Positions 3,619 through 31,141 of a stretch of 64,000 bases of DNA are shown here, in pieces. The position numbers were made by a program, and so were the translations under genes. The notes under the pieces were generated by a model. It saw only the letters and a program-made list of their open reading frames with translations. It did not search any database and was not told where the DNA came from. Position 1 is the first letter of the stretch; every line of letters starts with the position of its first letter. The DNA lies in NCBI GenBank assembly GCA_016124645.1, contig WGNE01000005.1:6103-70102 (forward strand). The letters run 5' to 3'. Source of the stretch: Alphaproteobacteria bacterium. Lineage in GTDB: Bacteria; Pseudomonadota; Alphaproteobacteria; Micavibrionales; UBA2020.

Positions 3619-4247
3619 CGACGGGGCTTCGGCGCGACCGAGACGGCGGGCGCCGAAAAAGCCGGCTGTTGCTGCATCGGCGGGGACGGCGCCCACATCT
3701 GCACCTCTATATACCGCCCGCCTTTCAGGTAGTCGCTGGAGACGCCTTCTTTCTCGACGATCTTTTCGACCTGCCGCGCCGTCAGAACCGCGAGGCGCAG
3801 GGGATGGTCGTCGCGCTCGGGCCCCAGAAAGTTGCCCATGCTGTCGCCGACGGTGAAGGAGAAGACGGAAAGGTCAATCTGCTCCGCGGGGATGGACAGG
3901 ACTTTGCGTCCGTCGTTCAGGGTGCTGTCCTGCGGTTCCTTGGTCAGGGTAAAATAGACGGGGTTTTGCTTGCGGATGTCGATGCCTTCCTGCCGTGCCG
4001 TTTGGCGCAGCCAGTCCTCGACCTCGCGCCGCTTGTCCAGATAGGCTTCCTGTCCGCCGCTACCGTCGCCCACGCTGCGGCATGGCGCGAACTTGGAGCA
4101 GAACTCGACGGCGGTGGCGGCTTGCTGGTCGGTGACGACGGCGAAGGGCTCGGCATTCCCGTGATAGACGCGGGTCAGGTAATACCCTGCAAGGGGGGAA
4201 TCGTCAGGTGAGGATGAGCCTTTGTCTGTCACGCTTCGTTCCCGCAA
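3615..4247 (-). CDS. Conserved hypothetical protein (about 205-210 aa, start uncertain)
   Basis: Protein-like composition with motifs YLDKRREVEDWL, NPVYFTL, FSFTVGDS and YIEVQMW; stop overlaps the convergent gene's stop; AT-rich upstream region. Confidence 0.75.
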   Translation of the reverse strand: MRERSVTDKGSSSPDDSPLAGYYLTRVYHGNAEPFAVVTDQQAATAVEFCSKFAPCRSVGDGSGGQEAYLDKRREVEDWLRQTARQEGIDIRKQNPVYFTLTKEPQDSTLNDGRKVLSIPAEQIDLSVFSFTVGDSMGNFLGPERDDHPLRLAVLTARQVEKIVEKEGVSSDYLKGGRYIEVQMWAPSPPMQQQPAFSAPAVSVAPKPRR

Positions 4248-8613: not shown

Positions 8614-9380
8614 TGGCGACACTGAAAGGGCCGTCCAAAGGGGCGTCGGGCGATTTGATCATCTCTCCCTCGGGGGCGCGGCGTTTCATGGTCGGCCTGT
8701 CGTGGGACGCCAAGGTGCCGAACATGGACGTCAGCATCAAGGCGCCGCCCAAGCCGGACGATACCGGCGGCAAGATCGTCTATTACCTCACCTGGCCTTT
8801 CCAGTTTCTGCGCATCTTTATCGTCTCCTTCTTCAAGCTTTTGCGCCTCGGCAGCTATTCCAAGGACATGGTGCGGGAGAAGAAGACCGACGCGCGCGAC
8901 CCCAGCATCAAGCAGTTCGACCTCGACCTTTACTGCTACATCTACGACGAGGCTTTCCAGCTCGTCGCCACCGTCGGCGCGAAGGAAGACAAGCTGATGG
9001 ACGAAAGCGGCAAGGTTTATCACACCGGCGACGACCAGAGCGGCTACGGCAGCGGCGACGACGAGCAGCTTTTCGTCGAGACGGCGGACCTGCCGGAAAA
9101 CTACCGCCATTTCTTCTTCGTCGTGAAAAGCGAGAGCAAATACAGCCTCGACGAGTTCATCAACCCCGCCGTGCGCCTCTGCGACAGCAAGACCGACGTC
9201 AATGTGCTCCACAGCACCATCATGCCCGACCCGGAAATGAAGAGGGCCTATAACTTCAGCTTCTGCCACGTCTATCGCGAGGGGGATCTCTGGCGCTTCC
9301 AGAACCTTGATACCTATACCGGGGACGGCGTGCAATGGCCCAGCTACCTGCCGGGCCTGGTCCAGAAGATGGCCGCATGA
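8613..9380 (+). CDS. TerD-family domain protein with a hydrophobic insertion
   Basis: VGLSWD, FDLDLYC, HTGDDQSGYGSGDDEQ (TerD Ca-binding-like motif), AVRLCD; TAATG overlap with gatB. Confidence 0.75.
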   Translation: MATLKGPSKGASGDLIISPSGARRFMVGLSWDAKVPNMDVSIKAPPKPDDTGGKIVYYLTWPFQFLRIFIVSFFKLLRLGSYSKDMVREKKTDARDPSIKQFDLDLYCYIYDEAFQLVATVGAKEDKLMDESGKVYHTGDDQSGYGSGDDEQLFVETADLPENYRHFFFVVKSESKYSLDEFINPAVRLCDSKTDVNVLHSTIMPDPEMKRAYNFSFCHVYREGDLWRFQNLDTYTGDGVQWPSYLPGLVQKMAA

Positions 9381-12282: not shown

Positions 12283-13146
12283 ATGGATATGGCGCAATTG
12301 CTTCTGGCGGCTCTGTTCATCCTCACCATCGGGCTTTTGGTGACGCTGAAGATGTGCAGCCTGCAGCTCGACCACCGCACCGCGCCGCTGTTCATCAGCG
12401 GCTGGACGCTGGCGGGGGTGGCGGCCGTCTCGCCGGTTTACGGGCATTTGCTGGCGCCGGGCTGGGCCGCGCTCGCCGCGCATCCGCTCTGGCTGTCGCT
12501 GGCGGTTTTGAAAGGCGCGCTGCTTTATGCGCTTTTCGTCGTCAGCCAGGCGCTGATGAAGGAAAGCCTGTCCTCCCGCCATTACGTGACGCCGCTTTCC
12601 ATCGGCGCGCTCACCCTGTTCAACGCCTTTTGCGGGGAGCATTTAAAGCCGCACGAGTGGTTTTCGGCCCTCGGGCTTTGCGCGCTGGCGGCGGGGTTCT
12701 TCCTGAAGGGGCATCTCTCCGACCTCGACCGGCGGGCGCGGTTTTCCTATCTCTTCCTCGTGCTGCTTTCGGCCTTTCTGGGCACCATCGACCAGATCGT
12801 GACCAAGGGCACCAACTGGTTCGTCCTGCTTTTGGTCTCCAACATCGTTTTGTTCGGTTTTTCGCTGGCGGTGAATATCCGCAACCTCGGCGTCTTGAAG
12901 GCCGCGCTCACCCACCGCTCGGCCGCGCTGGCCGGGTTCTTCTACGCGGCGACCGAGCTGGTGAAATTCTACCAGCAGGTCAGCATCAACCCCGTCAGCG
13001 TGGTGGTGACGGTGCAGGCCATGACCAAGCCGGTGATATTGCTGCTCAGCGCCCTCATCTGGAAGGAGCGCACGGTGAAAGAACAGCTTGTGTGGGGCGT
13101 GCTGGCTTTTGCCGTCACGCTGCCTTTATTCCTGTACGGCGGGTGA
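12283..13146 (+). CDS. DMT/EamA-like integral membrane protein
   Basis: About 10 hydrophobic helices in two halves; ALIWKERT..EQLVWG resembles the EamA end. Confidence 0.6.
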   Translation: MDMAQLLLAALFILTIGLLVTLKMCSLQLDHRTAPLFISGWTLAGVAAVSPVYGHLLAPGWAALAAHPLWLSLAVLKGALLYALFVVSQALMKESLSSRHYVTPLSIGALTLFNAFCGEHLKPHEWFSALGLCALAAGFFLKGHLSDLDRRARFSYLFLVLLSAFLGTIDQIVTKGTNWFVLLLVSNIVLFGFSLAVNIRNLGVLKAALTHRSAALAGFFYAATELVKFYQQVSINPVSVVVTVQAMTKPVILLLSALIWKERTVKEQLVWGVLAFAVTLPLFLYGG

Positions 13147-13175
13147 TATAATCGGGTCATGAGCAAGAGCGTGAA

Positions 13176-14357
13176 ATGAGCAAGAAACCGAAACCGCATG
13201 TCTTCGACATCATCCTCTTCGGCGGCGGGGTCGCCGGGCTTTGGCTGTGCAACACGCTGAAGCGCGCGGGCTATAACGTCATCCTCATCGAAAAGGACCG
13301 GCTGGGCAGCGGGCAGACGCTGGCCTCGCAGGGGATGATCCACGGCGGGCAGAAATACGTTTTGCAGGGCGCGGTCACCGGCCATGCGACCTCTCTCGCG
13401 AAAATGCCGGAACGCTGGAACGCGAGCTTCGAGGGCTGGGGGGAGATCGACCTCACCGCCGTCAAGATGATTTCCGACACCCAGATCATGTGGCCCGCGG
13501 GCTCCATCCTGTCGGACGTCGCGGTGCTGGGCGCGGCCAAGCTGGTCAATGCCGAAACCCGCAAGCTGAAAAAAGACGAATTTCCCGAGGTGCTGCGGCT
13601 GAAAAAGAAATTCAAGGGACCCGTCTATGAGCTGCCGGAAAAAGTGCTGGAGGTGCGCTCCCTCGTGCAGGCGCTGGCCGCGCCGCTGAAGGGCAGGCTT
13701 TTGAAGGGCGAGCTGACCGAGCTTTTGCCGGACGGGCAATGCGCCGTTTCCGGGCAGGTCTTGCGTGCGCAGCTCGTCGTCTTCACCGCCGGCACCGGGA
13801 ACGAAGACGCGCTGAAGCTGCTGAACGTGCAGGAAAAACAGACCCAGCGCCGCCCGCTCAGGCAAGTGATGGTGCGCAGCCTGCCCTATGCGCTCTACGG
13901 TCACGGCATCGTCGGCAACCCCAAGCCGCGCGTGACCGTGACCAGCCACGCGGACGGGCAGGGCGGCTACGTCTGGTACCTCGGCGGCGCCGTCGCGGAA
14001 GAGGGCGCGAAGATGGAGGAGGAAGAAACGCTGCGCTTCGCGCAAAAGGAAATGGCGGATATTTTTCCCGATATCGACTGGGAAAACAAGGAATGGGCGA
14101 CATGGTACGGCGACCGGGCCGAGCCTTTCGACGCCAAGGGCAGCCTGCCGCCCGGCCCGTTTTTGCACCAGCGCGGGCGCATCCTCATCGGCTGGCCGAC
14201 CAAGCTGACCTTCGCCCCCGCGCTTTCCGACCGCGTTTTCGACTGGCTGAAGGACAAGGACATCCGGCCGCTGGCGAAAACCGCGCCACCCGCCGCGCTG
14301 CAGACCGCCGACATCGCCTCCTACCCGTGGGAGGTCGCGACGTGGCGCAGGCTTTGA
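13176..14357 (+). CDS. FAD-dependent oxidoreductase
   Basis: IILFGGGVAGLW dinucleotide-binding motif, QTLASQGMIHGG, WPTKLTFAP. Confidence 0.85.
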   Translation: MSKKPKPHVFDIILFGGGVAGLWLCNTLKRAGYNVILIEKDRLGSGQTLASQGMIHGGQKYVLQGAVTGHATSLAKMPERWNASFEGWGEIDLTAVKMISDTQIMWPAGSILSDVAVLGAAKLVNAETRKLKKDEFPEVLRLKKKFKGPVYELPEKVLEVRSLVQALAAPLKGRLLKGELTELLPDGQCAVSGQVLRAQLVVFTAGTGNEDALKLLNVQEKQTQRRPLRQVMVRSLPYALYGHGIVGNPKPRVTVTSHADGQGGYVWYLGGAVAEEGAKMEEEETLRFAQKEMADIFPDIDWENKEWATWYGDRAEPFDAKGSLPPGPFLHQRGRILIGWPTKLTFAPALSDRVFDWLKDKDIRPLAKTAPPAALQTADIASYPWEVATWRRL

Positions 14358-15720: not shown

Positions 15721-17967
15721 CTATGTCTTTTCGTCCCCTACATTCGCTGCAAGGAAGTCCTTGACCTCTTCGTAGGCGCTCAGGATTTCGTCGGAGATTT
15801 CCCGCCGTTCCTGCGCGGTGGCGTCTTCCATGGCTTGCGCACGGTCGCAGAGCGCGGCCAGTTTTTTCGCGCCCAGCATGGCGGCGCCGCCCTTGAGTTT
15901 GTGCGCGGTTTCCGACCAGGCGGCGCTTTCCCCGTCGGTGCAAGTGGCGCGCAATTCCCCGATCATGCCGTCCGACTGGTCGAGGAAGATGCCGATCATC
16001 GGGCGGATGTCCTCCCCCTCCCCGGCGAATTGCGCGAGGGCGGCAAGGTCGATGACGCCCGCCGGGGCGCCTTTGCCGCCGTCTTCGGGCTTCTTCTTTT
16101 CGGGCAGGGTGAACCAGCGGCTGAAGACGAGGTTCAGCTCGTCGGGGTCGATGGGTTTTGAGACGAAGTCGTCCATGCCCGCGGCGAAGCACTTCTCGCG
16201 CGAGCCCATCATGGCGTCCGCCGTCATGGCGATGATGGGGATGCGCCTGTCCGTGCCTTTCTCGCTCTCGCGCACTTTGCGGCTGAAGTCGTATCCGCTC
16301 ATCTCCGGCATGTGGCAGTCGGTGATGATGGCGTCATAGGCGTTCTTCCTGTAAAGGTCCAGCGCTTCCGCGCCGTTGCGCGCGAAGTCGTAATTGTCGA
16401 TGGCTTCGCGCTGGAAGAGCTTTCGCATATAGGCCTCGTTGAGCGCGTGGTCCTCCACCAGCAGGAGGCGCGCGCCCATCAGCGGACGGCGCTGCTCTTC
16501 CGGCAGGAAGCTGGAAGGGTCGCGGTGGAAGACCTGCCGCGCCACGACGGGTCGCACGGGCGAGGTCTCGAAGGGAATGACGGCGGTGAAGACGGAGCCC
16601 TTGCCAAGCTCGCTTTCGACGCCGATGGCGCCGCCCATCATCTCGACCAGCTGCTTGGTGATGCTGAGGCCGAGACCCGTGCCGCCGAAGCGGCGCGTCA
16701 TGGAGGCGTCGGCCTGCGCGAACCGGTCGAAGACGGCGCCGACCCGGTCCGCCGCGATTCCGATGCCCGTGTCCGAGACGGCGAGGGTGACCTCGACATG
16801 GCTGTCGTCGATCTTCCGGCCGCGGATGGAGACCTTGACGCCGCCCTGCTCCGTGTACTTCACGGCGTTGCCGATGAGGTTCATCATGATGCGCCCGACG
16901 CGCAGCGGATCGCCCACGAGATAGGGGATGTCGTCGCCCGAGAACGCACAGGAAAGCCGCAGCCCCTTGCTGCTGCTGATCGGCATCATGGTTTCCATGA
17001 TGTCGTTGGAAACCTCCTGCAGGGCGAAGGGCAGCGATTCGAGCTTGAGCTCCTGCGCCTCGACCTTGGAAATGTCCAAGATGTCGTTGAGGATGTTGAG
17101 CAGGCTGTCGGCCGCGCGGTAGGCGACCTTGATCATCTCCCGGTGGTCCGGCGACAGGCTCTCGTCGTCGCACAGCAGGCGCGTCATGCCGAGGATGCTG
17201 TTCATCGGCGTGCGCAGCTCGTGCGACATATGCGCGAGGAAGTTCGACTTCGCCGCGTTCGCGGCCTCGACCTCGGCGAGCGACTTGTCGATGCGCCGCG
17301 CGATGTGGAACCACGCATAGGCGAGGGAGAGAAGGAAAGTGACGATGCCGGCCGCCAGCGCCCCCATTTGCAGGGAAACGAGCTGCCGGTTGCTGGCGGC
17401 GAAGCTGCTTGCGATGGCATGGACGGCGTCATCCTGCGCCTTCACCGCGTCGATGAGCCGCTTGTCCATTCCCGCGTGAAGCGAAGTGGCCGCCCCGTCG
17501 TCCGCCTGCGGCCGGAAAACGCCGTCGGCGGCCTTCTTGAGCTCTTCCCATCGCCCGCGCGCGGCAAGAATCTTTTCCCGGATGGCGGGCTCGGCGAAAG
17601 TCTGCACGGTGACCGCCCGCTTGCCGTCTTGCGAGGGGAATATCCGTCCCGTGTCCAGGAAGCCGTCGAAGTTCGCATCGATGATCCGGCGCACGTCCTG
17701 CGCCGCCGCGCGCGCCTCGGCGGCGGATTTGCCGTCGCGGGCGGCGCCGGAAAGCGCGGCGTCCTGCGCGTTATAGGCGTAGCGGGTCATCAGCATGCGC
17801 TGCAAGCCCGCGGCGTTGACGATGACGCTGCCGTCCTGCTGGCGGTGGGTATAGCTGCCGAGAAGGAGGGAGGAGGCGGCAAGCAAGGCAAGAAACGCCC
17901 CCAGAAGCCCGGCAAGATGCGTAAAGACCGCCTTGCCGGAATAAGCCATGCCCTTTTCTGCCATCAC
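15721..17967 (-). CDS. Hybrid sensor histidine kinase (PilJ/NarX-like sensor, HisKA, HATPase, REC, Hpt)
   Basis: VNAAGLQRML sensor motif between two TM helices; HMSHELRTP, NLIGNAVKYT, GGTGLGL; REC with ITDCHMP and FVSKP; Hpt AHKLKGGA. Confidence 0.92.
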   Translation of the reverse strand: MMAEKGMAYSGKAVFTHLAGLLGAFLALLAASSLLLGSYTHRQQDGSVIVNAAGLQRMLMTRYAYNAQDAALSGAARDGKSAAEARAAAQDVRRIIDANFDGFLDTGRIFPSQDGKRAVTVQTFAEPAIREKILAARGRWEELKKAADGVFRPQADDGAATSLHAGMDKRLIDAVKAQDDAVHAIASSFAASNRQLVSLQMGALAAGIVTFLLSLAYAWFHIARRIDKSLAEVEAANAAKSNFLAHMSHELRTPMNSILGMTRLLCDDESLSPDHREMIKVAYRAADSLLNILNDILDISKVEAQELKLESLPFALQEVSNDIMETMMPISSSKGLRLSCAFSGDDIPYLVGDPLRVGRIMMNLIGNAVKYTEQGGVKVSIRGRKIDDSHVEVTLAVSDTGIGIAADRVGAVFDRFAQADASMTRRFGGTGLGLSITKQLVEMMGGAIGVESELGKGSVFTAVIPFETSPVRPVVARQVFHRDPSSFLPEEQRRPLMGARLLLVEDHALNEAYMRKLFQREAIDNYDFARNGAEALDLYRKNAYDAIITDCHMPEMSGYDFSRKVRESEKGTDRRIPIIAMTADAMMGSREKCFAAGMDDFVSKPIDPDELNLVFSRWFTLPEKKKPEDGGKGAPAGVIDLAALAQFAGEGEDIRPMIGIFLDQSDGMIGELRATCTDGESAAWSETAHKLKGGAAMLGAKKLAALCDRAQAMEDATAQERREISDEILSAYEEVKDFLAANVGDEKT

Positions 17968-18241
17968 GCCCTCCTCTTTTCAGGCAACAAGCGACCAAGC
18001 CTGCGCGCCTTTCTTTTTATGCCCTCCCCCACCTGCCGATGGGGGTTATTCCTTCGCATGCTCGTGAATTCTTGACGGAAGCGATCTCCTTGGCTTTCGT
18101 CCCCTTGTTCTGACCATCGGTTTCTATGAGATTCATTGATACGGTGGGAGCCTTTGCAGGGCAAGAGGAAACTATTTATGCATTGGAAAATAAAGAACTT
18201 TCGGTAGGGCGTGCAGTTGCAAGTCCGGTGAGCTGTGCGAC

Positions 18242-18280
18242 AAAAAACGCCCCCGGCGCATTTGCCGGGGGCGTTTTTTT
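18242..18280. terminator. Strong intrinsic terminator downstream of bcsS
   Basis: AAAAAACGCCCCCGGC-GCATTT-GCCGGGGGCGTTTTTTT perfect stem. Confidence 0.9.
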
Positions 18281-18301: not shown

Positions 18302-19012
18302 TTAGAAGTCGGCGCCGAAGGAGATGCCGCCATAGCCGCCGTCAGCGCCGCGGCCGCGGGTATTGGCCACGCCGCCGTAGAGGCGCGCGGTGGCGAAGCC
18401 GATATGCACGCCGGAAATCGCGCCGCCGAAGCGGGACTGGTCATAGGACTTGTTGCCCATGAGCAGCGCTTCGGGACCGATGGCGAAGGGGCCGAAGTTG
18501 TAGGAGGCGTCAAAGCGCGTCCAGTAGCTGTCGTAGGCGGTGGAGTAGGAGCCCATCGCGCCGAGCGCAATCTTGTCCGCCGCGTTGACGTTCATTTCCA
18601 GCAGGCCTTTCACGCCGCCCTGCGAACCGTGGACCTTGGTGCCGGGGTCGTTGGGGCTGAGGTGATAGTGCTGGTAATCGCCGCCAAGGTAGCCCTTGAT
18701 GCTGCCCTTGTCGAAGAAATGGCCGTAGCCGACCATCAGGTCGCCCGACGTGACGGCGCCATCGACGCCGCCGGCGACCAGAACGGTGTTGTAGTCGAAT
18801 TCCCCGTAACCGGCGGAAGCGCGCAGCAGCCAGCCGTCGCGGGCGGTGATGTCCTGGTTCTGCAGCGCCGTGACGACGCCGAGATAGGCGTAATAGGAAT
18901 TGGGGGCGAAGTCCACGCCCGTCCACGCGCCGGTGCGGCCCGCTTCGGCGGACTGGATGCCGGCCATGAGGCAGACGGCGACGGCGAGTGCGGAAAGAAG
19001 TTTTTTCGACAT
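18302..19012 (-). CDS. bcsS: BcsS-like outer-membrane beta-barrel protein
   Basis: Sec signal peptide; DGWLLRASAGYGEFDY, GDLMVGY, SYSTAYDSYWTR, IGPEALLMGNKSYDQSRFG match the BcsS family as I recall it; terminal Phe. Confidence 0.75.
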   Translation of the reverse strand: MSKKLLSALAVAVCLMAGIQSAEAGRTGAWTGVDFAPNSYYAYLGVVTALQNQDITARDGWLLRASAGYGEFDYNTVLVAGGVDGAVTSGDLMVGYGHFFDKGSIKGYLGGDYQHYHLSPNDPGTKVHGSQGGVKGLLEMNVNAADKIALGAMGSYSTAYDSYWTRFDASYNFGPFAIGPEALLMGNKSYDQSRFGGAISGVHIGFATARLYGGVANTRGRGADGGYGGISFGADF

Positions 19013-19038
19013 GAGGATATCCCTGTGCTTTTTAAGTC

Positions 19039-19052
19039 AAACAATATTGTTT
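19039..19052. promoter_or_regulatory. Perfect 14-bp palindrome, putative operator for bcsS
   Basis: AAACAATATTGTTT, 27 nt upstream of the bcsS start. Confidence 0.5.
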
Positions 19053-19196
19053 CAAAGCTACAATACCCCCGAAACGGCTTCCAGAGGGCTTTGGCCATAT
19101 GACGGTTTTGTCAGCGGGTTATGGCTTTTTTGCAACAGTTTTTCATGCGTTTTCCGGGGGTTGCCGGGTTTTCGGACGAAAACCGGCCCGAAAGGG

Positions 19197-20798
19197 TCAT
19201 TTGCCCTTCAGTTGCCGCGCAATTTCCGGCGCCATGCGCAGCGCCAGCGCGGCGATGGTGATCGTCGGGTTCGAGCAGCTGCTCGCCGGGAAGACCGCCG
19301 AACCGATGATGAAAAGGTTCTTGTGCGCATGGGCCCGGCAATGGGGATCGACGACGGAGGAGGCCGGGTTCGCGCCCATCACGGCCATGCCCATCTGGTG
19401 GTGCTCGGTGAAAGGGTCGGTGAAATACAGCAGCTTCGCCTTCAGCCGCCTGGAGATGCGCGTGAAGGTCTCCCGGACGTGGGCGAGGCCTTTTTCCTCG
19501 TATTCGCTGAAGGAATAGTAATGGCGGATGCACGGCTGCCCCGCGCGGTCGCGCTTGTCCCAGTTCAGGGTGATGCCGTTGGCGGGGTTCGGCAGCTGCT
19601 CGACGCTGCCTTCCAGCTCGACCTCGCGGCTGACGGCGTCGCGTATCGCGGCGTCGAGCAGGGGCGGCTCGACTCCCTGCGACATCAGGCGGTCGGTTAT
19701 TTCATGCAGGTGGGAATTGTTCTTCACCCGCAGCAGCCAGCCGGAATGTTCGCTGCGGAAGGGGCCGTCGCGAAAATCGTGGCTGCCCGATATCCCGGAA
19801 GGCCCGCGCCCCGGCCAGACGGGGTCCGGCAGGACGAGACGGGCGGCGATCGCCGGGTGGTCCATGAAGTTGCGTCCCACCTGCCCCGAGGCATTGGCGA
19901 GACCCTTGGGGTGGCTTTCATCCGCGCTCATGAGCAGCAGGCGCGGGGTTTCCATGCCGTTGGCGGCCAGAACGAAAATCCGGCCCTTTGCGATGACTTT
20001 GGTGCCGTCGGCGCGCTGCGCTTCGACATGCGTCACGGGGCCGTCCGCCACGATGCGGTCCACGCGGGTGTTCTCGATCACGCGCACGCCCAGCTTCTCG
20101 GCGCGCTCGACGTGGTAATAGCCCGTGTATTGCGCGCCCGAGGCGCAGATGGGCGTGCAGGAGCTGAACCCCTCGCACCGCCCGCGCCCCATGTAGGGCA
20201 CGGTCGCGCGCGCCGCGGTGCGCGGGATGATGGAGATGCCTTCCTCTTTCAGCCCGTCGCGGAAATAGCGGTCGCAGACGCTGAAGGGGGTCGGCGGCAT
20301 CGGCGGCGGCTGGGAGCGGGGGGAGCCGTCGTCGGTATCTGGGTCGCCGCAGACGCCCAGCTCGCGTTCCGCCTCGCAGTAAAAGGGCTCGAGCTCGTCG
20401 TAGCTCAGGGGCCAGTCGGCGCCGACCTTGTAGGCGCTGCGCAGCCGGAAGTCCGCGGGGTGCATGCGCGGCGTCGCGGAATCCCAGTGCCACGTCGTGC
20501 CGCCGACGACGCGCAGGTATTCGTTATGCACGACGGCGGGGCCCGTCATCTCGATGAAGTTGTTTTCCGGCCTCTCCCAGTCGGGCCGCGGCGCGTGGTC
20601 CGGGTTCGGGTAGCAGGAGGAGGGTGAGAAATAGGCGTCGGTGGTGACGTTTCGGACGATATCGGCGCGGGTGATGCGCGGACCGGCTTCCAGCACAACG
20701 ATATCCCTGACCCCGAGGGAGGCGAGCTTCCACGCGGTGACCGCCCCCGCGACGCCGGAGCCGATGACGACGACCTCCGCCTTGATGGTCTCGGTCAT
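19197..20798 (-). CDS. GMC-family FAD dehydrogenase catalytic subunit (sorbitol/fructose/glucose dehydrogenase large-subunit type)
   Basis: VIGSGVAG, VVGGTTWHW, Cys cluster CEGFSSCTPICASGA, GRNFMDHP, HHQMG, NPTITIAALA; ATGA overlap with the small subunit. Confidence 0.88.
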   Translation of the reverse strand: MTETIKAEVVVIGSGVAGAVTAWKLASLGVRDIVVLEAGPRITRADIVRNVTTDAYFSPSSCYPNPDHAPRPDWERPENNFIEMTGPAVVHNEYLRVVGGTTWHWDSATPRMHPADFRLRSAYKVGADWPLSYDELEPFYCEAERELGVCGDPDTDDGSPRSQPPPMPPTPFSVCDRYFRDGLKEEGISIIPRTAARATVPYMGRGRCEGFSSCTPICASGAQYTGYYHVERAEKLGVRVIENTRVDRIVADGPVTHVEAQRADGTKVIAKGRIFVLAANGMETPRLLLMSADESHPKGLANASGQVGRNFMDHPAIAARLVLPDPVWPGRGPSGISGSHDFRDGPFRSEHSGWLLRVKNNSHLHEITDRLMSQGVEPPLLDAAIRDAVSREVELEGSVEQLPNPANGITLNWDKRDRAGQPCIRHYYSFSEYEEKGLAHVRETFTRISRRLKAKLLYFTDPFTEHHQMGMAVMGANPASSVVDPHCRAHAHKNLFIIGSAVFPASSCSNPTITIAALALRMAPEIARQLKGK

Positions 20799-21352
20799 TC
20801 CTTTTCCTCCGGCAGTTTCGTCCATCCGCCGAAACCCGCGGGCTCGAGCATCGGGACGGGCATCCGCCCCTCGACGGCGCGGTACATCAGCGCCTTTTCA
20901 TAGGCGACGCGCACCCGCGGGCGGGAGGCGTTGAAATACATGCCCGTGTACCACGCCATCAGCAGGTGCCCGGCGAACCATGTCTCCCCCTCGTCGAAGC
21001 CGAAGGCCTGCTTGTCGGCGGCGGGGCGCTTTTTTCCGGCGGGGTCTTTTTTCAGCTCGGCGCTGATCTTGGTGTGCAGGCGCGTGATATGGCTGGGGCC
21101 CCAGGGCTCGTCCATCATCAGCCGGTATATTTCCTTCATCATGCCGGGGTCGAGGTCGTCCGTCAGCGTGATGAAGGCGCAAAGATCGGCGAAGTTTTCC
21201 GGCGTCGGCTCGTGGCTGTCGAAGTTCCAGCGGAAGGCGGGTTTTTCCGCCGCCTGCGCGCCGGCGCGGACAAGCGGCGCGGCGATCCCGCCCAGTCCGA
21301 GGGCCACGAGGGTTTTGACGACCTGACGGCGTGTGAAAGAGCGCGTGCTCAT
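20795..21352 (-). CDS. Tat-exported dehydrogenase small subunit (sorbitol dehydrogenase small-subunit family)
   Basis: Twin-Arg signal FTRRQVV plus hydrophobic core and AQA cleavage; WYTG..VAYEKALMY..VP..GFGGW; ATGA overlap with the GT2 stop. Confidence 0.8.
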   Translation of the reverse strand: MSTRSFTRRQVVKTLVALGLGGIAAPLVRAGAQAAEKPAFRWNFDSHEPTPENFADLCAFITLTDDLDPGMMKEIYRLMMDEPWGPSHITRLHTKISAELKKDPAGKKRPAADKQAFGFDEGETWFAGHLLMAWYTGMYFNASRPRVRVAYEKALMYRAVEGRMPVPMLEPAGFGGWTKLPEEKE

Positions 21353-23250
21353 ATGGCCCCTAAAACTGTTGAACAATATCCGAAAATGGCCGCGCAGACG
21401 CAGAGAACGGCGAAGGGATGGCAATTGCCGGTCGCGCGCCGCCGTTTTTTCTGGAGCAAGGGGTCCAGAATGCTCTTGCCGTCGCTGTCGTCGAAGCTTT
21501 TGAGCCAGCGGATGCGGTCGATCAGGATGAGGTATTCGTAATTGTCGCGTGCGGCCGCGCTGGGCCACGAGAGCCGCCCGCCCATCGCGCCGTCTTGTCC
21601 CGTCGCGCGCAGGTCGATGTCGAACGCGATATCCTTGCCCAGAAGGGTCGTTTCCCCGGCGTAGGTGCCCGGGGGAAGGGCGTCGCCGCCTGCCGCCGCG
21701 CGCAGCGTCATGCCTTGGTCGGACAGTTCGCTGACCGTGGCGTCGAAGGACTTCCGTTCCCCGGATTTTTCCCGCAGCCGCGCGGGCAGGGCGACGGGGA
21801 AGCGCGAAAAGTTTCGGCGGTTTTTGCCGCAGCGCTGCGTCAGCAGGATGACGCGCACCGCGATGATGCAGCTGATGACCGCCCAGAAAACCATCATGAA
21901 AAGGGGCCAGCCGGTATAGGGCAGGGCGTGGTTCCACGCGTCCCATGATATCTTGGCGAGGGAAAGCAATATCAGGGAGAGGATGAACCACGGGAGGGCG
22001 AAGAAGCTACCTTGCGATTTCACCTTGGGCGTGACCCAGAAAGGGATGTGCCGGCGGCCGAACAGGGCGGGCAGGGCCCGGACGGCAGAGGGGAAGCGCG
22101 CGAGGTTGAAGGTCTCGTTCAGGATAAGCCGCCCGTATCCGCGCGAAAACTCCTCGAAGGTCAGGATGCTGACGACGATATAGGGAATGCTGAACATCCC
22201 CCAAGTGCCGAAATCAACATTGAAGGGGGACATGCCGAAAAGAAGCGCCATGAACGGCACGAGGTAAAGCACCGTGTGGTGCACGGCCTCCATATGCGTC
22301 AGGACGTGCAGGATGTAGCCGAACCTCTGCCCGGGCGTGATTTTGCCCGTCCTGTTGAAAAGGCCCTTGCGCACAAGCTGCATCGCGCCCTGCGCCCAGC
22401 GCAGGCGCTGCTTGCGAAAGCTCAGCGCGTCATAGGGCGAAAGACCGGCGGAAAGCGTCTCCGGGTGATAGACGGAGGTCCAGCCCGCGTCGTGCAGCAG
22501 GAAGGAGGTGTGCATGTCCTCCGTGACCGTGCCCGTGGCGATGCCGCCGATGTCGTCCAGCGCCGCGCGGCGCAGCACGGCGGAACAGCCGCAGAACATC
22601 GCGCCGTGGAAAAAATCGCGCCCGCGCTGGATGACGCGGAAGAACAGCGCGTGTTCCGACCATGAATCCTTCCCCCTGTTCCTGCCGATGTGCTGGAATG
22701 AATCGAAGTTGTAGTATTCCTGCGGCGTCTGGACGAGGGCGACTTTTTCATCGTTGAAATAGCCCAGCGTGCGGTCCAGAAAGTTCGGCGCCGCGATGAA
22801 ATCGGCATCGAAGCTGGCGATGAACGCGCCCTTGGTTTGCTTCAGCGCGTTGTTGAGGTTGCCGGCCTTGGCGTTCAGGTTATCGGTGCGGGCGATGTAA
22901 CGGCAGCCGAGTTCCTCCGCCATCGCGCGCATTTCCGGGCGGTTGCCGTCGTCCAGCAGCCATGTTTCGTGCGGGTAGCTGATGCGCAGCGCGGCGACCA
23001 CCGTGCGGCGGACGATCTCCACGGGCTCGTTGTAGGTGGGGATATAGACATCGACGGCAAGCCCGGGCGGCGCGGGCGGGGGCGAGCGCAGGGGAAAGCG
23101 CAGGACGCTCAGCACATAGATCAATCCCCAGACGAAGGTGATGAGCTCGGCGCTGTAGAAAAGCGTCGAGAAAACCGGGGCGTTCGCGTTGAAGACCGTG
23201 AGGCGCCACGGGAAATAGACCGAGGCCAGCCCGACATAGGCCGCCAGCAA
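21349..23250 (-). CDS. bcsA: Cellulose synthase catalytic subunit-like GT2 with PilZ domain (5' end probably frameshifted; see findings)
   Basis: DVYIPTYNEP, DDG, NAKAGN, DAD, QTPQ, FCGCS, TED, QRLRW, gating loop FWVTPK, PilZ RNFSR and ELSDQG. Confidence 0.85.
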   Translation of the reverse strand: MLAAYVGLASVYFPWRLTVFNANAPVFSTLFYSAELITFVWGLIYVLSVLRFPLRSPPPAPPGLAVDVYIPTYNEPVEIVRRTVVAALRISYPHETWLLDDGNRPEMRAMAEELGCRYIARTDNLNAKAGNLNNALKQTKGAFIASFDADFIAAPNFLDRTLGYFNDEKVALVQTPQEYYNFDSFQHIGRNRGKDSWSEHALFFRVIQRGRDFFHGAMFCGCSAVLRRAALDDIGGIATGTVTEDMHTSFLLHDAGWTSVYHPETLSAGLSPYDALSFRKQRLRWAQGAMQLVRKGLFNRTGKITPGQRFGYILHVLTHMEAVHHTVLYLVPFMALLFGMSPFNVDFGTWGMFSIPYIVVSILTFEEFSRGYGRLILNETFNLARFPSAVRALPALFGRRHIPFWVTPKVKSQGSFFALPWFILSLILLSLAKISWDAWNHALPYTGWPLFMMVFWAVISCIIAVRVILLTQRCGKNRRNFSRFPVALPARLREKSGERKSFDATVSELSDQGMTLRAAAGGDALPPGTYAGETTLLGKDIAFDIDLRATGQDGAMGGRLSWPSAAARDNYEYLILIDRIRWLKSFDDSDGKSILDPLLQKKRRRATGNCHPFAVLCVCAAIFGYCSTVLGAI

Positions 23251-23320
23251 CGTCAGGCGCGCGCGAAACGGGCGCGGTCGGGGGTCTTTCGGGAATGCCG
23301 TCCTGATTTTTCATCGGCGC

Positions 23321-23350
23321 ATGATACACATTTTGACATATATGTATCAA
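23321..23350 (-). promoter_or_regulatory. Sigma70-like leaderless promoter with an overlapping inverted repeat
   Basis: TTGATA-18-TATCAT on the minus strand, 6 nt before ATG 23314; IR TGATACA-N14-TGTATCA (23322-23349) and internal ACATATATGT palindrome. Confidence 0.6.
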
Positions 23351-23462
23351 TAGCGGGAAAGGCGGCCCCTGCAAGCCCTTGTTGCGCAAAGGCCGCGGCG
23401 CGCGGGCCGGGGAAGGGGGGCGCCGGGGCCGAATCGGCCGGCGCCGGCGAGGACGGGGGCGT

Positions 23463-23492
23463 TTGCATTTTTAGCGCGCCGCCCTGTATAAT
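23463..23492 (+). promoter_or_regulatory. Sigma70-like promoter for bglX
   Basis: TTGCAT-18-TATAAT, 35 nt before the ATG. Confidence 0.6.
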
Positions 23493-23527
23493 CACGGCAC
23501 GTTCATTTCCGTTTTTCCGGTGGCGCC

Positions 23528-25732
23528 ATGTCCAAACAAATCAACAGCCTGATGATGCGCATGACGCCGGAAGAGAAGATCGGCCAGCTCAACCTCGTCA
23601 ATCCCGGCATCTTCGCCAATACCGGCGCGGTCGTCACGCAGGATATCGACGGGAAAATCCGCAAGGGTCAGGTGGGCGGGCTGTTCGGCTATTACGACGC
23701 CGCGCTTGTCGGCAAGACCCAGCGTCTCGCGGTCGAGGAATCGCGTCTCGGCATCCCGCTCATTTTCGGGCTCGACGTCATTCACGGCCACAAGACGATC
23801 TTCCCCATCCCGCTCGCCCTGTCCTGCACATGGGACATGCCGCTCATCGAGAAAAGCGCGCGCATCGCGGCGATGGAAGCGACGGCGGACGGGCTGAACT
23901 GGGTGTTTTCCCCCATGGTCGATATCGCGCGCGACCCGCGCTGGGGCCGCATCGCGGAAGGCGCGGGGGAAGATCCCTATCTCGGGTCCAAAGTCGCGGC
24001 GGCCATGGTGCGCGGCTATCAGGGCGACGATCTTTCGCGGCCGGATACGGTCATGGCCTGTGTCAAGCACCTCGCCCTCTACGGCGATGCCGAGGGCGGG
24101 CGCGACTACAACACCACCGACATGAGCCGCCTGAAAATGCACGAATACTACCTGCCGCCCTACAAGGCCGCGGTGGAAGCGGGCGCGGGCAGCGTCATGT
24201 CCTCCTTCAACGAGGTGGACGGCGTGCCCGCCGCGGGCAACAAGTGGCTGATGAAGGATTTGCTGCGCGGGCTATGGGGCTTCAACGGCTTCGTGGTGAC
24301 GGATTACACCAGCATCAACGAAATGACCTGCCACGGCACCGGCGGGCTGAAGGAAAATTCCGCCCGCGCGCTGAAGGCGGGCACGGATATGGACATGGTG
24401 GGCGAGTGCTTCCTGACCACCTTGCTGGAATCGCTCGAAGACGGCAGCGTGAGCATGGACGACATCGACGCCGCCTGCCGCCGCATACTGGAAGCCAAGG
24501 AGCGGCTGGGCCTGTTCGACGACCCTTACCGCTACGTCGATGAAAAGCGCGCCGGGGAAGTCCTGAGCGAAGACAGCCGCGCCGCCGCGCGCGACATGGC
24601 GGCGCGTTCCTGCGTGCTGCTGAAGAACGACGGGCCGCTGCTGCCGCTGAAAAAGGAAGGCACGATCGCCGTCATCGGCCCGCTGGCGGACGACAAGCGG
24701 AACATGCCCGGCACCTGGAGTATCGCCTCGGACTGGACGCAATGCGTTTCCGTCCTCGAAGGCATGAAGAACGCGGCGGGCGCGGGCGTGAAATTCCTGC
24801 ATGCGGCGGGCGCGAACTTCACGCGCGATCCGGTGCTGGCCGAGCGGCTGAATTTCTCGGGCGAGCGGGTTCTCATCGACCCGCGTTCGCAACAGGAGAT
24901 GATCGACGAGGCGCTGAAAGTCGCGCGCAAGGCGGACGTCGTCGTCGCCGTGGTGGGCGAGGCGCAGGAAATGTCCGGCGAGGCGGCGAGCCGCGTCGAT
25001 ATCGGCATCCCCCAAGAGCAATTGCCGCTCATCGACGCGCTTTCCAAAACCGGCAAGCCGCTGGTCCTCGTCATCGCGACCGGCCGTCCCCTGACGCTGG
25101 TGCGCGAATGCGAACAGGCGCAGGCGATGCTTCTCATGTGGTTCGGCGGGACGGAGGCGGGCAACGGCGTCGCCGACGTTCTGTTCGGGCATCACAACCC
25201 CTCCGGCAGGCTGACGGCGACGTTTCCGCGCCACGTCGGGCAGGTGCCGCTTTACTACAATCACAAGAACACGGGGCGGCCCTACGACGGCGCGAAACCC
25301 GCGGAAAAATTCAAGTCGCGTTATCTCGACGTTGAGAACGGCCCGCTGTTCCCCTTCGGCTTCGGCCTCGGCTACGCGCCTTTCGAATACGGCCCGTTGC
25401 GGCTCGACAAGACCGAACTGCAGGGCGCGGAAACGCTCACCGCCGCCATTGCCGTGAAGAACGCGGGCGATTGCGCGGGCGAGGAAACCGTGCAGCTTTA
25501 CGTCAGCGATCCCGTCGCCAGCGTCACGCGGTCCGTAAAAGACCTTAAGGGCTTTGAAAAGGTCTTCCTGCAGCCCGGCGAGGAGAAGGACGTGAGCTTC
25601 GCCGTCACCACGGAACAATTGATGTTCTTCAACGGCGATCTGCAGCGCGTCTGGGAGCCCGGCGAATTCGTCATCCACGTCGGACGCAATTCGGGAGACG
25701 TGCAGTCCGCTTCCGTGCAGTGGAAGAAATAA
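23528..25732 (+). CDS. bglX: GH3 beta-glucosidase, BglX-like, with no signal peptide
   Basis: LDVIHG, ARDPRWGR, CVKH, nucleophile VVTDY, GEAQEMSGEAASR, C-terminal FnIII-like domain ETVQLY..LKGFEKV. Confidence 0.92.
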   Translation: MSKQINSLMMRMTPEEKIGQLNLVNPGIFANTGAVVTQDIDGKIRKGQVGGLFGYYDAALVGKTQRLAVEESRLGIPLIFGLDVIHGHKTIFPIPLALSCTWDMPLIEKSARIAAMEATADGLNWVFSPMVDIARDPRWGRIAEGAGEDPYLGSKVAAAMVRGYQGDDLSRPDTVMACVKHLALYGDAEGGRDYNTTDMSRLKMHEYYLPPYKAAVEAGAGSVMSSFNEVDGVPAAGNKWLMKDLLRGLWGFNGFVVTDYTSINEMTCHGTGGLKENSARALKAGTDMDMVGECFLTTLLESLEDGSVSMDDIDAACRRILEAKERLGLFDDPYRYVDEKRAGEVLSEDSRAAARDMAARSCVLLKNDGPLLPLKKEGTIAVIGPLADDKRNMPGTWSIASDWTQCVSVLEGMKNAAGAGVKFLHAAGANFTRDPVLAERLNFSGERVLIDPRSQQEMIDEALKVARKADVVVAVVGEAQEMSGEAASRVDIGIPQEQLPLIDALSKTGKPLVLVIATGRPLTLVRECEQAQAMLLMWFGGTEAGNGVADVLFGHHNPSGRLTATFPRHVGQVPLYYNHKNTGRPYDGAKPAEKFKSRYLDVENGPLFPFGFGLGYAPFEYGPLRLDKTELQGAETLTAAIAVKNAGDCAGEETVQLYVSDPVASVTRSVKDLKGFEKVFLQPGEEKDVSFAVTTEQLMFFNGDLQRVWEPGEFVIHVGRNSGDVQSASVQWKK

Positions 25733-27653: not shown

Positions 27654-30600
27654 TCAGTCGCGCCCTTGCGGCCTGTCGGCGAAGGGGGCGAGGGTGAAAA
27701 TGAACCGCTGGTCAAGCCCCAGTCCGAGAAGCTGGGCAAGGGGTTCGGTGATCTCGATGATCGGCTGCGCGCTGCCAAGCGGCGTATGGTCCGAGGCGGC
27801 GGCCCGCAGCGTCGCCTGATGCGCGGCGGCGACGATGGCGGTCGTCAGCGCGGGCGGCAGGTCGGCGGGGGCCTGGCTTGTGCGGTAAATCAGCCCGTTG
27901 CCGGCGCCAAGCGCGGGGCAGCTGCCGCCATAGGCGCAGGAGAAGCGGCGGAAGTCCGCGGAGAGCCCGTTCAGCGTGTCGGACGCCGGATCGCCGCTAT
28001 AGACCAGCCAGCGGCCCGATGCCGCCGAAAGGCCGCCGTTGTTGATGAAGTCATGCGCCGAGGCCAGCGTGACGGCGTCGCCCGAACCGCCGGCCGAGAC
28101 CGTCGCGCCCGGGGCGATGGAGAGGTTGGAAGAGGCGCCGGTCGTTTGCGCCGTGACGGTTTTCGCGCTGATGCCGCCCAGCGTCATCGCCCCCGCGCTC
28201 GACAGGTTCACCGCGCCGTTCGAGGCGGCCAGCGTCACGCCCGAAAGGTCGAGCGCGCCGCCCGCCGTCATGGAAATACCGGCGTTGGATGTCGTGATGG
28301 TTCCCGCGCTCACCGCCTTGATGTCGTTGCCCGCCGTCAGGCTCAGGCTGCGCCCGTCGTTCAGGGCGAGGGTGCCGCCCTTCAGGTCCAGCGTGATGTC
28401 GCTTCCCGCCTGCAGCGAGATATCGGCCGTCTGGCTGAGCCTTTCGAGGTAGCCGGCGGTGAAGAGCGAATAGCCGTCCGTCGCGTCCCCGCGCGCGGTC
28501 GAGGCCATGGCCTGCGCCGCCTCCGTCGCCCCGCTGCCCGGCGGCAAAAGCGCCACGCCCCATTTGCCGGACTGGTATTGCTCCAGCAGCGTGCGCGCGT
28601 CGGCGGAAAGGGCTTTGTCGTAGATCGTGATATCCGAATAGAGCGCGCCCAGATAGCGCCCGTCGCCCACGTTCATGCTGCCCAGCACGAGGGGGGAGGA
28701 ATAATCGGGGATGGAAGCGCTGCTTTCGGACGCGGTATTGATGAGCGCGCCCTGGTTGTAGAGCTTCACGCGCTGGCTGCTGGTCAGCGTGCCGTCATAG
28801 ACGAGGCCGAAGAGGTTGGTCACGCCGTTGCCGTAGGTCTGGGAGGTTGCGAAGCGGTTGTTGTTCGAATCGACGTCCACGTTCAGCTTGTTGCCGCTGT
28901 AGTAGAAAAGGCTGTAGGCCTGCTGCACGCCCACGCCGTTGCGCTTGGACAGCAGGGCTTCAGCGGTCGAGCCGTCCAGCGTTTCCGGCGTGTTGGTCGC
29001 GATGATGGTGAGCCCCGCCGTGCCGTCCAGCGTCGATGAATCGGCCACCGTCATGATGTCGCTGGAACCGTCGAAGCGCAGCACGTCATGGCCGTTCAGC
29101 CCGCCGCCGATCCACAGGGGCATGGCCGCGCCGCTGGCCGAGGCGTCGTTGCCGTTCCCGCTGCTGTCCGCCCAGTTCGAGGCGAGGCCGCGGTAAAGGG
29201 CGTCGGAACTGTAGCTGGCCGTCAGGCTTTCGACCGTGGTGATGGTCGAGCCGGAAACGCCGGCGACGGTATAGGTATCCGCGCCCATGTCGTCCGCCGT
29301 CGTCGCCGTTCCCGTCGCGCCGATGCGGATGCGCGCGCCCGGCGCCAGCGACGTGGCGGAAAGCGCGCCGCTCAGCGTCAGGGTATTCGTGCCGATGCTG
29401 CCGCTGACGCTGCGGCCGGAAAGCCCGTCGGTCGAATAGGTCAGGGTGACGCTGTCGCGCGCCGTCGGGTCCAGCCAGAGTTTTAAGGAGGAAGCGAGGT
29501 CGATGCCGCCGCCGGTCGAGACATAGGCGGGATCGACGTTGCCGTAGATGGCGATGTTGTCGGGGTCGAGGAAATAGGTGCCCTTGCCGCCCGCGGGCGC
29601 GGTCAAATCGACGTTGCCCCGCGCGTCGAGATAGGCATGGCCCGATGTTTCAAGAAAGCCGCCGTCACCGCCGTTCCACCCGCCGCGCGCGAAGACGTCG
29701 CCGTAAAAATAAGTGTCCCCGTCGCTCCAGACGATGGTGCGTCCGCCGTCGCCCGCGTCGATGGCGTCGTTGTAGATCTTTGCGCCCGCCGAAACATGGA
29801 CGCTTTGCGCGGCGGGCGTGTCGCCGCCGCCAAGATAATCCCCGCCGATCTTGACGTCGCCGCCGCCCGCGCGCCCCGATGCGGCGATGACGGCCGCGGG
29901 AGAGATGCCGACGTTATCCGCCGTCACGGTGATGCTGCCGCCCGTTTCGCCCGCATTCGCGCCCGCCGCGCTCAGCGTGCCGCCCACCAGCACGGCGCTG
30001 GCCCCCTGCTTTTGCCCCTTGCCGGATGCGGCGTTGCCCGTCACGGCGTTCACGCCTTCCGCGTAAAGGGTGATCTTGCCGTTATGCTGCCCGACGCTGT
30101 TGGCCTGCACGACCCCGCTGCTGGAAACGATGCCGTTGGCGACCTCTCGCCCCGCCGCCGCGGTCAGCGCGACCGTGCCGCCGTCCGCCGCGATGATGCC
30201 GCCGTTGGAAACGAGGTGCGAAGCCGTGTCGTTGGTGACGGCGACATTGATGAGGCTGTCGCCGTACATGTCCATCGTCAGCGTGTCGCCGGAAGCCAGA
30301 TGCACGCGGCCCAGCCGCGCGGTGATGGTGCCGCTGTTAAGAACGGAAGGCGCGACGAGCCCGACCAGCCCCGCGTCGCGCGCCGTGATCTCGCCCGCGT
30401 TGGAAATGAAGGCCTCCGCCCGGCCCGGCTGGCTGAAATTCATGTTGCCCGCCATGAAATCGTCGTTTCGGATGTTCGCGGTGGTGGCGAGCAGGCTGCC
30501 GACGTTGACTTTCGCGTCCTGCCCGAAGATCAGCCCGTTGGGGTTGACGAGGTAGATTTTGCCGTTCGCGTTCAGCGCGCCCATGATGCGCGAGGGGTCC

Positions 30601-30908
30601 TGCCCGCCGATGCGGTTCAGCGCCATGGCGGAAGCGGAGGGCTGGACGAAGTTCGTCGTTTCGTTCGCATCTATATTGAATGACTGCCAGTCGATGACCG
30701 CGCGGGCGGAATTTTGCGTGACCGTCAGCGTGTCGCCGGCGGAAGAGATGGCCGCGCTGCCCGCGGAAACCACGCCGCCCGCCGGATTGGCATAGGCCGC
30801 GCCCGTCTGCGCGAAGAGGAAAACCGCCGCCAGCATCGCCGCCCCCTTGCACAGGGACTGGCGGCAAACCTTTAGAAACCAACGGGTATTTTGCAAACCG
30901 GTTACCAT
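27654..30908 (-). CDS. Filamentous haemagglutinin N-terminal (TPS) domain protein with a LamG/concanavalin A-like domain (start may be 30836)
   Basis: Signal peptide ..AYANP; IDWQSFNI, LNRIGG, LVNPNG TPS motifs; LWLD..WADSSGNGN..LRFDG..IYDKALS..YQSGKWG LamG-like region. Confidence 0.85.
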   Translation of the reverse strand: MVTGLQNTRWFLKVCRQSLCKGAAMLAAVFLFAQTGAAYANPAGGVVSAGSAAISSAGDTLTVTQNSARAVIDWQSFNIDANETTNFVQPSASAMALNRIGGQDPSRIMGALNANGKIYLVNPNGLIFGQDAKVNVGSLLATTANIRNDDFMAGNMNFSQPGRAEAFISNAGEITARDAGLVGLVAPSVLNSGTITARLGRVHLASGDTLTMDMYGDSLINVAVTNDTASHLVSNGGIIAADGGTVALTAAAGREVANGIVSSSGVVQANSVGQHNGKITLYAEGVNAVTGNAASGKGQKQGASAVLVGGTLSAAGANAGETGGSITVTADNVGISPAAVIAASGRAGGGDVKIGGDYLGGGDTPAAQSVHVSAGAKIYNDAIDAGDGGRTIVWSDGDTYFYGDVFARGGWNGGDGGFLETSGHAYLDARGNVDLTAPAGGKGTYFLDPDNIAIYGNVDPAYVSTGGGIDLASSLKLWLDPTARDSVTLTYSTDGLSGRSVSGSIGTNTLTLSGALSATSLAPGARIRIGATGTATTADDMGADTYTVAGVSGSTITTVESLTASYSSDALYRGLASNWADSSGNGNDASASGAAMPLWIGGGLNGHDVLRFDGSSDIMTVADSSTLDGTAGLTIIATNTPETLDGSTAEALLSKRNGVGVQQAYSLFYYSGNKLNVDVDSNNNRFATSQTYGNGVTNLFGLVYDGTLTSSQRVKLYNQGALINTASESSASIPDYSSPLVLGSMNVGDGRYLGALYSDITIYDKALSADARTLLEQYQSGKWGVALLPPGSGATEAAQAMASTARGDATDGYSLFTAGYLERLSQTADISLQAGSDITLDLKGGTLALNDGRSLSLTAGNDIKAVSAGTITTSNAGISMTAGGALDLSGVTLAASNGAVNLSSAGAMTLGGISAKTVTAQTTGASSNLSIAPGATVSAGGSGDAVTLASAHDFINNGGLSAASGRWLVYSGDPASDTLNGLSADFRRFSCAYGGSCPALGAGNGLIYRTSQAPADLPPALTTAIVAAAHQATLRAAASDHTPLGSAQPIIEITEPLAQLLGLGLDQRFIFTLAPFADRPQGRD

Positions 30909-31141
30909 ACTTCTATTGTATGACCAGTTCGTTAACATTAAGTGGCATTTGATTTAACTTCGGGACAAATGCCTTCTAAATTCTCTTTAAATTTTAAGCA
31001 GATTCTTCTCAAATACCCGGATTCCTTGGGAAATTTCCCAAGACCGGATTGGTCCGAATATTATATTGAACGCACGCGCGCATAAGAACGTATGCAGACG
31101 AATTTCCCGCGAATCAGCCGTTTTGCGCGGTTTTCGCCCGC

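Follow-up and report, generated by a model that had tools for sequence, protein, structure and literature searches.

How a BcsA-like polysaccharide synthase might work without its usual partner BcsB, and what a sugar dehydrogenase might be doing in its operon, are questions raised by a locus at positions 18,302 to 25,732 of a 64,000-nucleotide stretch of Alphaproteobacteria bacterium DNA (contig WGNE01000005.1, positions 6,103 to 70,102), which we refer to as the window and whose own numbering is used below. A first-pass annotation, made from the sequence, had described here a glucan synthase of glycosyltransferase family 2 (GT2), the small and large subunits of a flavin adenine dinucleotide (FAD) dehydrogenase, a BcsS barrel and a divergent GH3 glucosidase. 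We find that the first four genes belong together as a conserved functional unit and that their adjacency is not accidental: the set occurs in about nine uncultured bacterial lineages. The cassette represents a genuine, conserved form of synthase-dependent polysaccharide secretion that has apparently not been described. We lean towards the view that it is a self-contained exopolysaccharide module whose polymer is oxidised in the periplasm on its way out. The features discussed are as follows.

18302-19012, minus strand: BcsS (PF17036), 236 aa, a signal peptide and a predicted 12-stranded outer-membrane barrel ending in F
19197-20798, minus strand: GMC/FAD large catalytic subunit, 533 aa from ATG 20798, with 3Fe-4S cysteines and without a signal peptide
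20795-21352, minus strand: small subunit of the FAD dehydrogenase, the 'hitch-hiker' partner for twin-arginine translocation (Tat), 185 aa (PF12318, FTRRQVVK)
21349-23250, minus strand: GT2, a BcsA-like processive synthase with a predicted C-terminal PilZ barrel, 633 codons from TTG 23250, with the true start further upstream
23251-23350, minus strand: 5' end of the GT2 gene, with conserved codons, a TGA, an out-of-frame ATG and a promoter-like pair
About 18241-18280, minus strand: intrinsic terminator 3' of BcsS that closes the cassette, a GC-rich hairpin followed by a T-run
23528-25732, plus strand, divergent: GH3, a BglX-type beta-glucosidase (NF011678)

The four minus-strand genes and the divergent GH3 gene lie at the coordinates first claimed, and the rest of the proposed layout was also verified. 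The ATG of the small-subunit gene overlies the GT2 stop in an ATGA overlap at 21349-21352, a second ATGA overlap at 20795-20798 joins the small- and large-subunit genes, and 184 nt separate the GMC stop from the BcsS gene, downstream of which stands the terminator.

The gene set recurs in shuffled orders

We scanned one genome per species, which gave 79 loci, and counted BcsS adjacency over 82 non-redundant related loci. BcsS directly adjoins GT2 in approximately 39 of these 82, spread over many phyla, with hosts that include Thioalkalivibrio, Thiobacillus, Geobacteraceae and Nitrospinaceae. The dehydrogenase pair stands beside GT2, mostly together with BcsS, in eight loci other than the one in the window (P0001, L006, L075, L067, L063, L105, L106 and L107); thus, the worry that the combination might be unique to this genome, which the first-pass annotation had named as a reason to drop its proposal, does not apply. 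Gene order varies among cassettes, being collinear, divergent or, as here, with BcsS last. Chance adjacency was rejected because the cassette recurs in such shuffled gene orders.

The closest relative by GT2 sequence (P0001, 72% identity) has the order GT2-BcsS-small, followed at the place of the GMC gene by the first 126 codons of an unannotated gene that is cut off by the end of the contig. The order in L001/L006 (GT2 57% identical) is GT2-BcsS-small-GMC. An uncultured 'Micavibrio' (L075) carries a compact four-gene cassette amid housekeeping genes. The longest arrangement, in a metagenome-assembled genome (MAG) of Hyphomicrobiales (L067, the same as L086; 2497-16322), is a nine-gene run of small-GMC-GMC-GT2-BcsS-GMC-small-GMC-GT2, with four paralogous GMC genes, two small subunits, two GT2 and one BcsS. 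A Chromatiales MAG (L063) has the dehydrogenase pair beside GT2-BcsS; this cassette (7245-8792, 12585-14033) also holds a Kelch-repeat beta-propeller protein and a second, pyranose-oxidase-like GMC enzyme.

A metagenome scan was then seeded with the cassette GMC proteins and its four best matches were inspected. Three of them (L105, L106 and L107) have a small subunit and GMC adjoining GT2, in partly divergent arrangements, and the fourth is a 2-kb contig. BcsS is present in L105 and L107, whereas L106, a 5-kb contig, shows none. Around the L105 cassette we also noted a GT-C-like membrane protein, a small GT2, and, at 3025-4152, a UDP-4-keto-pentose/UDP-xylose-synthase-like gene joined to an IS6 transposase fragment and apparently disrupted by insertion.

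The phylogenies agree with this linkage. A tree built from 104 large subunits places the 11 cassette copies, without exception, in one group together with the short 2-kb contig, and none of 500 label shuffles produced clustering as tight as that of the cassette GMC proteins. In the GT2 tree, the nine dehydrogenase-linked synthases all belong to a single 23-member clade, with none among the other 60 sequences. Wherever flanks were long enough to judge, the cassette dehydrogenases were never seen away from GT2/BcsS. A class-level sample of 400 genomes contained no cassette and no GMC protein above 45% identity, so the cassette is rare among reference genomes. The first-pass annotation knew of no described bcs operon with such a dehydrogenase, and our literature searches likewise returned no operon description combining cellulose synthase, a GMC oxidoreductase and PilZ.

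A BcsA-like synthase without BcsB

GT2 matched the Pfam GT2 families at 1e-23 and Cellulose_synt weakly. Against TIGR03030 (CelA) it scored 339 bits, with a cut-off of 699, and because it falls so far under this cut-off we do not regard it as an orthologue of classical BcsA. The protein contains the motifs DDG, DAD, TED and QxxRW (as QRLRW) and an FxVTxK gating loop (as FWVTPK), the core residues of which are invariant in an alignment of GT2 with 23 homologues (A1). Also invariant in A1 are the RxxxR of the PilZ region (R479-R483) and the glycine of SxxG (G513). The second PilZ motif of GT2 reads ELSDQG, with E replacing the D/N of [D/N]xSxxG, and the Pfam PilZ profile matched at E=1e-3 with 19.8 bits, under its gathering score of 22.5.

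The AlphaFold2 model of GT2 has a mean confidence (pLDDT) of 87. Besides the GT-A domain, it has two N-terminal membrane helices, five other long helices, a six-strand barrel (483-561) and a helix at the C-terminus. Its closest fold is c-di-GMP-bound BcsA (4P00; template-modelling (TM) score 0.80, root-mean-square deviation 4.2 Å), E. coli BcsA comes next, and the model also matches 9B8V. The nearest relatives in sequence, at 50-72% identity, come from uncultured Alphaproteobacteria.

Does a complete Bcs machinery lie elsewhere in the genome? Profile searches for BcsB (PF03170), BcsC (PF05420) and GH8/BcsZ (PF01270) found none of them in the whole 2.85-Mb, 91%-complete assembly, and GT2, GMC, the small subunit and BcsS are each present in one copy. 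A hidden classical bcs locus was therefore rejected. The absence of bcsB, bcsC and bcsZ, first claimed for the window, holds genome-wide, so that there is no bcsB/C locus elsewhere in the genome that could use this GT2. BcsB is also absent from five other genomes with related loci, and the proposal of a synthase that does without it is thereby upheld.

Compared with Bcs types I-III (BcsA-BcsB-BcsC/BcsK-BcsZ), the cassette shares the BcsA fold, the D,D,D,QxxRW and FxVTxK signatures and, as predicted, the PilZ barrel, as well as BcsS, whose Pfam family is named from bcs operons. It differs from them in lacking BcsB, BcsC and BcsZ in this genome, in having a dehydrogenase in the operon, and in having a 12-strand barrel as its sole outer-membrane part. 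In addition, BcsA has four N-terminal membrane helices whereas GT2 has two, and GT2 scores half the CelA cut-off.

A second comparison is the BgsA-BgsB(-TolC) system of Sinorhizobium meliloti, which makes a mixed-linkage beta-glucan and which also has a BcsB-independent, BcsA-like synthase and a minimal gene set (PMC13438883). BgsA is activated by c-di-GMP, which it binds through a non-PilZ C-terminal domain (PMC13438883). Unlike the cassette, this system uses an HlyD-type membrane-fusion protein and TolC where BcsS stands here, and it has no dehydrogenase (PMC13438883). A link between the cassette and the APS operon of S. meliloti, with ApsE equivalent to BcsS, was not supported: a tblastn search with BcsS against 72,556 plasmids found only the bcsS of A. 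caldus. The partial matches of GT2 to the same plasmids reached at most about 40% identity, and the longer ones about 30-36%. This collection presumably holds the Sinorhizobium megaplasmids.

A dehydrogenase pair without a cytochrome subunit

The small subunit matches PF12318 (FAD-SLDH small subunit) at E=4e-13, and the RR of its twin-arginine motif, FTRRQVVK, is kept by all nine cassette small subunits. The large subunit aligns with the alpha subunit of Burkholderia cepacia FAD-dependent glucose dehydrogenase (GDH; 6A2U_B, 2e-124) and with the large subunit of fructose dehydrogenase (7W2J_A, 4e-106). It keeps the Cys-rich 3Fe-4S motif, with CEGFSSCTPIC aligned with CCGNNNCMPIC, and its C208, C214 and C218 are invariant in the large-subunit alignment (A3). 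The residues aligned with the His/His-Asn pair of GMC enzymes, which we take to be catalytic, are retained. At the position of the second motif cysteine of GDH, the large subunit has Glu; in GDH alpha, this cysteine forms a disulfide to the small subunit (PMC9727119).

Enzymes of this family consist of three subunits, namely a catalytic subunit, a Tat hitch-hiker and a triheme cytochrome c (PMC9727119). We compared the cassette with the B. cepacia FAD-GDH gamma-alpha-beta complex, Gluconobacter fructose dehydrogenase and the FAD-sorbitol and 2-ketogluconate dehydrogenases (PMC9727119). A homologous large subunit, the FAD fold, the three 3Fe-4S cysteines and a PF12318 Tat small subunit are common to all. 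The cassette enzyme differs from the heterotrimers in having no triheme cytochrome c, in having Glu for the disulfide Cys, and in being encoded inside a polysaccharide synthase operon. No cytochrome c subunit is present in this locus, elsewhere in the 91%-complete genome or in any related cassette. The cassette defines a group of FAD/Fe-S dehydrogenases without one.

Can GMC flavoenzymes act on more than single sugars? Two of them, the flavin domain of fungal cellobiose dehydrogenase and bacterial glucoside 3-dehydrogenase, attack beta-glucosides and oligomers at C1 (the reducing end) or C3. Such chemistry on oligosaccharides is thus feasible; both enzymes act in catabolism, and neither is known to be linked to a polymer synthase.

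BcsS is a predicted outer-membrane barrel tied to the synthase

BcsS matches PF17036 at E=6e-36. Its AlphaFold2 model, built with 25 homologues (pLDDT 90.7), shows a signal helix followed by 12 strands, and Foldseek matched it to 12- to 14-stranded outer-membrane barrels (autotransporter domains, KdgM, OmpG and FapF) at TM scores of 0.45-0.57. Of about 40 homologues listed, the majority begin with a hydrophobic, signal-like segment and close on an aromatic residue; in a few, the start is uncertain or the chain runs on for a few residues after the aromatic. One homologue (L004, 9911-10924) has an N-terminal SPOR domain, which binds peptidoglycan.

The tie to the synthase goes beyond adjacency. 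At least six proteins are fusions of GT2 and BcsS (P0022, P0024, P0026, P0027, P0028 and L062 7820-10801). The junction is a hydrophobic segment that ends in an AxA-like site (for example, ..FFPTGNARA/DNW) and resembles a signal peptide, which suggests that signal peptidase may cleave there after translocation of the BcsS part. Together, the 12-strand model, the adjacency and the gene fusions bear out the reading of BcsS as an outer-membrane barrel with a tie to the synthase. In the literature that we searched, mentions of BcsS are confined to lists of accessory Bcs components (PMC8892547, PMC9693552), and searches for BcsS function or PF17036 returned nothing relevant.

Is BcsS the export channel? 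It could instead be a surface anchor or receptor for the (oxidised) chain, or an assembly factor, with the polymer leaving by another route. Its mere 12 strands, the homologue with a peptidoglycan-binding domain and the presence of BcsS in classical bcs operons that have BcsC, as reviews describe (PMC8892547), would fit such a role. However, no cassette contains a BcsC-, TolC-adjacent or other porin gene, and BcsS is the sole envelope protein conserved with the synthase; we consider a role other than export unlikely.

A proposed route for the polymer

How might the four proteins work together? GT2 would polymerise a nucleotide sugar, most likely UDP-glucose into a beta-glucan, and would thread the chain through its own channel. 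The predicted c-di-GMP-sensing PilZ barrel would gate GT2, and BcsB would not be needed; the fold and motifs of GT2 fit a BcsA-type synthase, and the genome encodes 10 GGDEF proteins. By homology with the FAD-glucose and fructose dehydrogenases, the large subunit would be carried to the periplasm by the Tat signal of the small subunit. There, the dehydrogenase may oxidise the emerging polymer. The likeliest site would be the free reducing end, converted to an aldonolactone or aldonate, because the closest solved relative oxidises glucose at C1; alternatively, ring hydroxyls could be converted to keto groups. With no triheme cytochrome c subunit present, the electrons would have to go to some other acceptor. 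Finally, BcsS may take the chain across the outer membrane or anchor it there, as its modelled barrel, its linkage and its fusions suggest. Oxidation of the polymer by the dehydrogenase is the best-supported reading of the gene set, and it is from gene linkage that we infer it. Two parts of the earlier proposal were not supported: the product as a short beta-glucan, and redox-coupled secretion. As to the sugar, UDP-xylose-synthase-like genes stand in two dehydrogenase-linked loci.

Several observations weigh against this route. The nearest solved relatives of the dehydrogenase, as judged by sequence, act on free monosaccharides. L002 (59%) and L004 (52%), which are among the closest GT2 relatives, have a convergent BcsS gene and no dehydrogenase, so oxidation would not be required for making or exporting the polymer. 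An electron acceptor is also lacking: no open reading frame of at least 90 aa with two or more CxxCH motifs was found in the 91%-complete genome, and hence no multihaem c-type cytochrome was detected there. The modelled BcsS barrel, with 12 strands, would be narrower than the 16-18-stranded porins that export polysaccharides. Because of the same UDP-xylose-synthase-like genes, glucose may not be the sugar in every locus. At its base, the cassette GMC group is weakly supported (80 in the Shimodaira-Hasegawa-like approximate likelihood ratio test, SH-aLRT). Lastly, the start of the GT2 gene is out of frame with the only ATG, so GT2 may be truncated or inactive in this genome.

Some of these points would also fit a dehydrogenase that leaves the polymer unmodified and oxidises free periplasmic sugars or oligosaccharides, in scavenging, acid production or polymer turnover, with the gene linkage reflecting co-regulation and a shared surface-attached aerobic lifestyle. 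Free glucose or fructose is the substrate of the solved relatives, the closest GT2-BcsS loci do without a dehydrogenase, and BcsS is as similar to KdgM-type oligosaccharide uptake channels as to anything else. Such a role would leave unaccounted for a tight linkage that has survived rearrangement in nine loci, with overlapping stop and start codons in this one, and the clustering of the cassette dehydrogenases in the GMC tree, weak basal support notwithstanding, with no copy seen apart from GT2/BcsS given long flanks. Moreover, ordinary family members carry the cytochrome c subunit that is absent here. We judge oxidation of free sugars unlikely and retain oxidation of the emerging polymer as the preferred reading.

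A more far-reaching version would have the dehydrogenase oxidise the chain repeatedly after polymerisation, at C6 or at ring hydroxyls, such that a neutral glycan becomes a polyuronate or polyketo polymer in the periplasm. We hold this to be very doubtful. If it were true, it would be an enzymatic post-polymerisation oxidation, an exopolysaccharide modification without known precedent, and the four paralogous large subunits of L067 would bring several distinct oxidations with them.

The frame of the GT2 gene raises a separate question, namely whether the cassette is functional in this genome. The codons upstream of TTG 23250 (..FRARLT) are in frame and agree with the N-terminal consensus of the homologues, and an in-frame TGA at 23313-23311 closes the frame upstream of this TTG. 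The sole ATG (23314) is one base out of the GT2 frame and lies 7 nt past the -10-like hexamer of a promoter-like pair, TTGATA-18-TATCAT at 23350-23321, that was found in a promoter scan. Between the ATG and the TTG are two homopolymer runs, A5 at 23311-23307 and C5 at 23284-23280. This anomaly could stem from a one-base error in either run, from a genuine frameshift or from use of a rare start codon.

Were the frameshift real, the cassette could be decaying here, with GT2 frameshifted at its 5' end, the protein absent or its first membrane helix incomplete, and no product made; the TGA, the ATG one base off and the upstream codons that still match the homologue consensus are what such decay would leave. 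However, nothing interrupts the remaining 633 codons, the catalytic and predicted PilZ motifs are all intact, and identity to the nearest relative is 72%. A one-base error of the draft assembly in the A5 or C5 run is equally likely, and translation could still begin at the TTG or at a rare ATC or CTG codon. Decay of the cassette is, in our estimate, improbable.

The GH3 gene and other neighbours

The GH3 protein belongs to the BglX equivalog NF011678, with 888 bits against a cut-off of 666. A divergent BglX-type gene thus lies where the first-pass annotation had placed it; membership in the conserved unit, in contrast, was rejected, since no homologue was found in the 84 related loci first fetched or in 80 metagenome loci (about 160 in total) and since the protein has no signal peptide. 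A periplasmic location for GH3 is likewise unsupported, because it lacks this signal and its match begins at profile position 38.

The genes flanking the cassette are unrelated to it: a hybrid histidine kinase, a fatty-acid desaturase, a response regulator and a two-partner-secretion (TPS) exoprotein. The kinase, with a PilJ-like sensor (15721-17967), and the exoprotein, with a TPS domain (1094 aa, 27654-30938), have no conserved link to the cassette. We also noted that EF-Tu of this organism is a singleton at 90% identity among 15 billion proteins, its nearest relatives (91-95%) being from alphaproteobacterial MAGs.

Implications

The periplasmic modifications known for synthase-made exopolysaccharides are acetylation, deacetylation, epimerisation and phosphoethanolamine addition. 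If the proposed route is true, oxidation, carried out by a flavoenzyme devoted to it, would add a new kind to this list. The substrate of the cytochrome-less dehydrogenase group may be a polymer or oligomer, which would be of interest for biosensor and biomaterial enzymology, for instance for oxidised cellulose-like polymers. BcsS, until now an orphan family, gains a testable role. The synthase and the barrel, two essential genes that are fused into one in some organisms, offer a minimal system for two questions: how a BcsA-like synthase functions without BcsB, and how the chain passes across the outer membrane.

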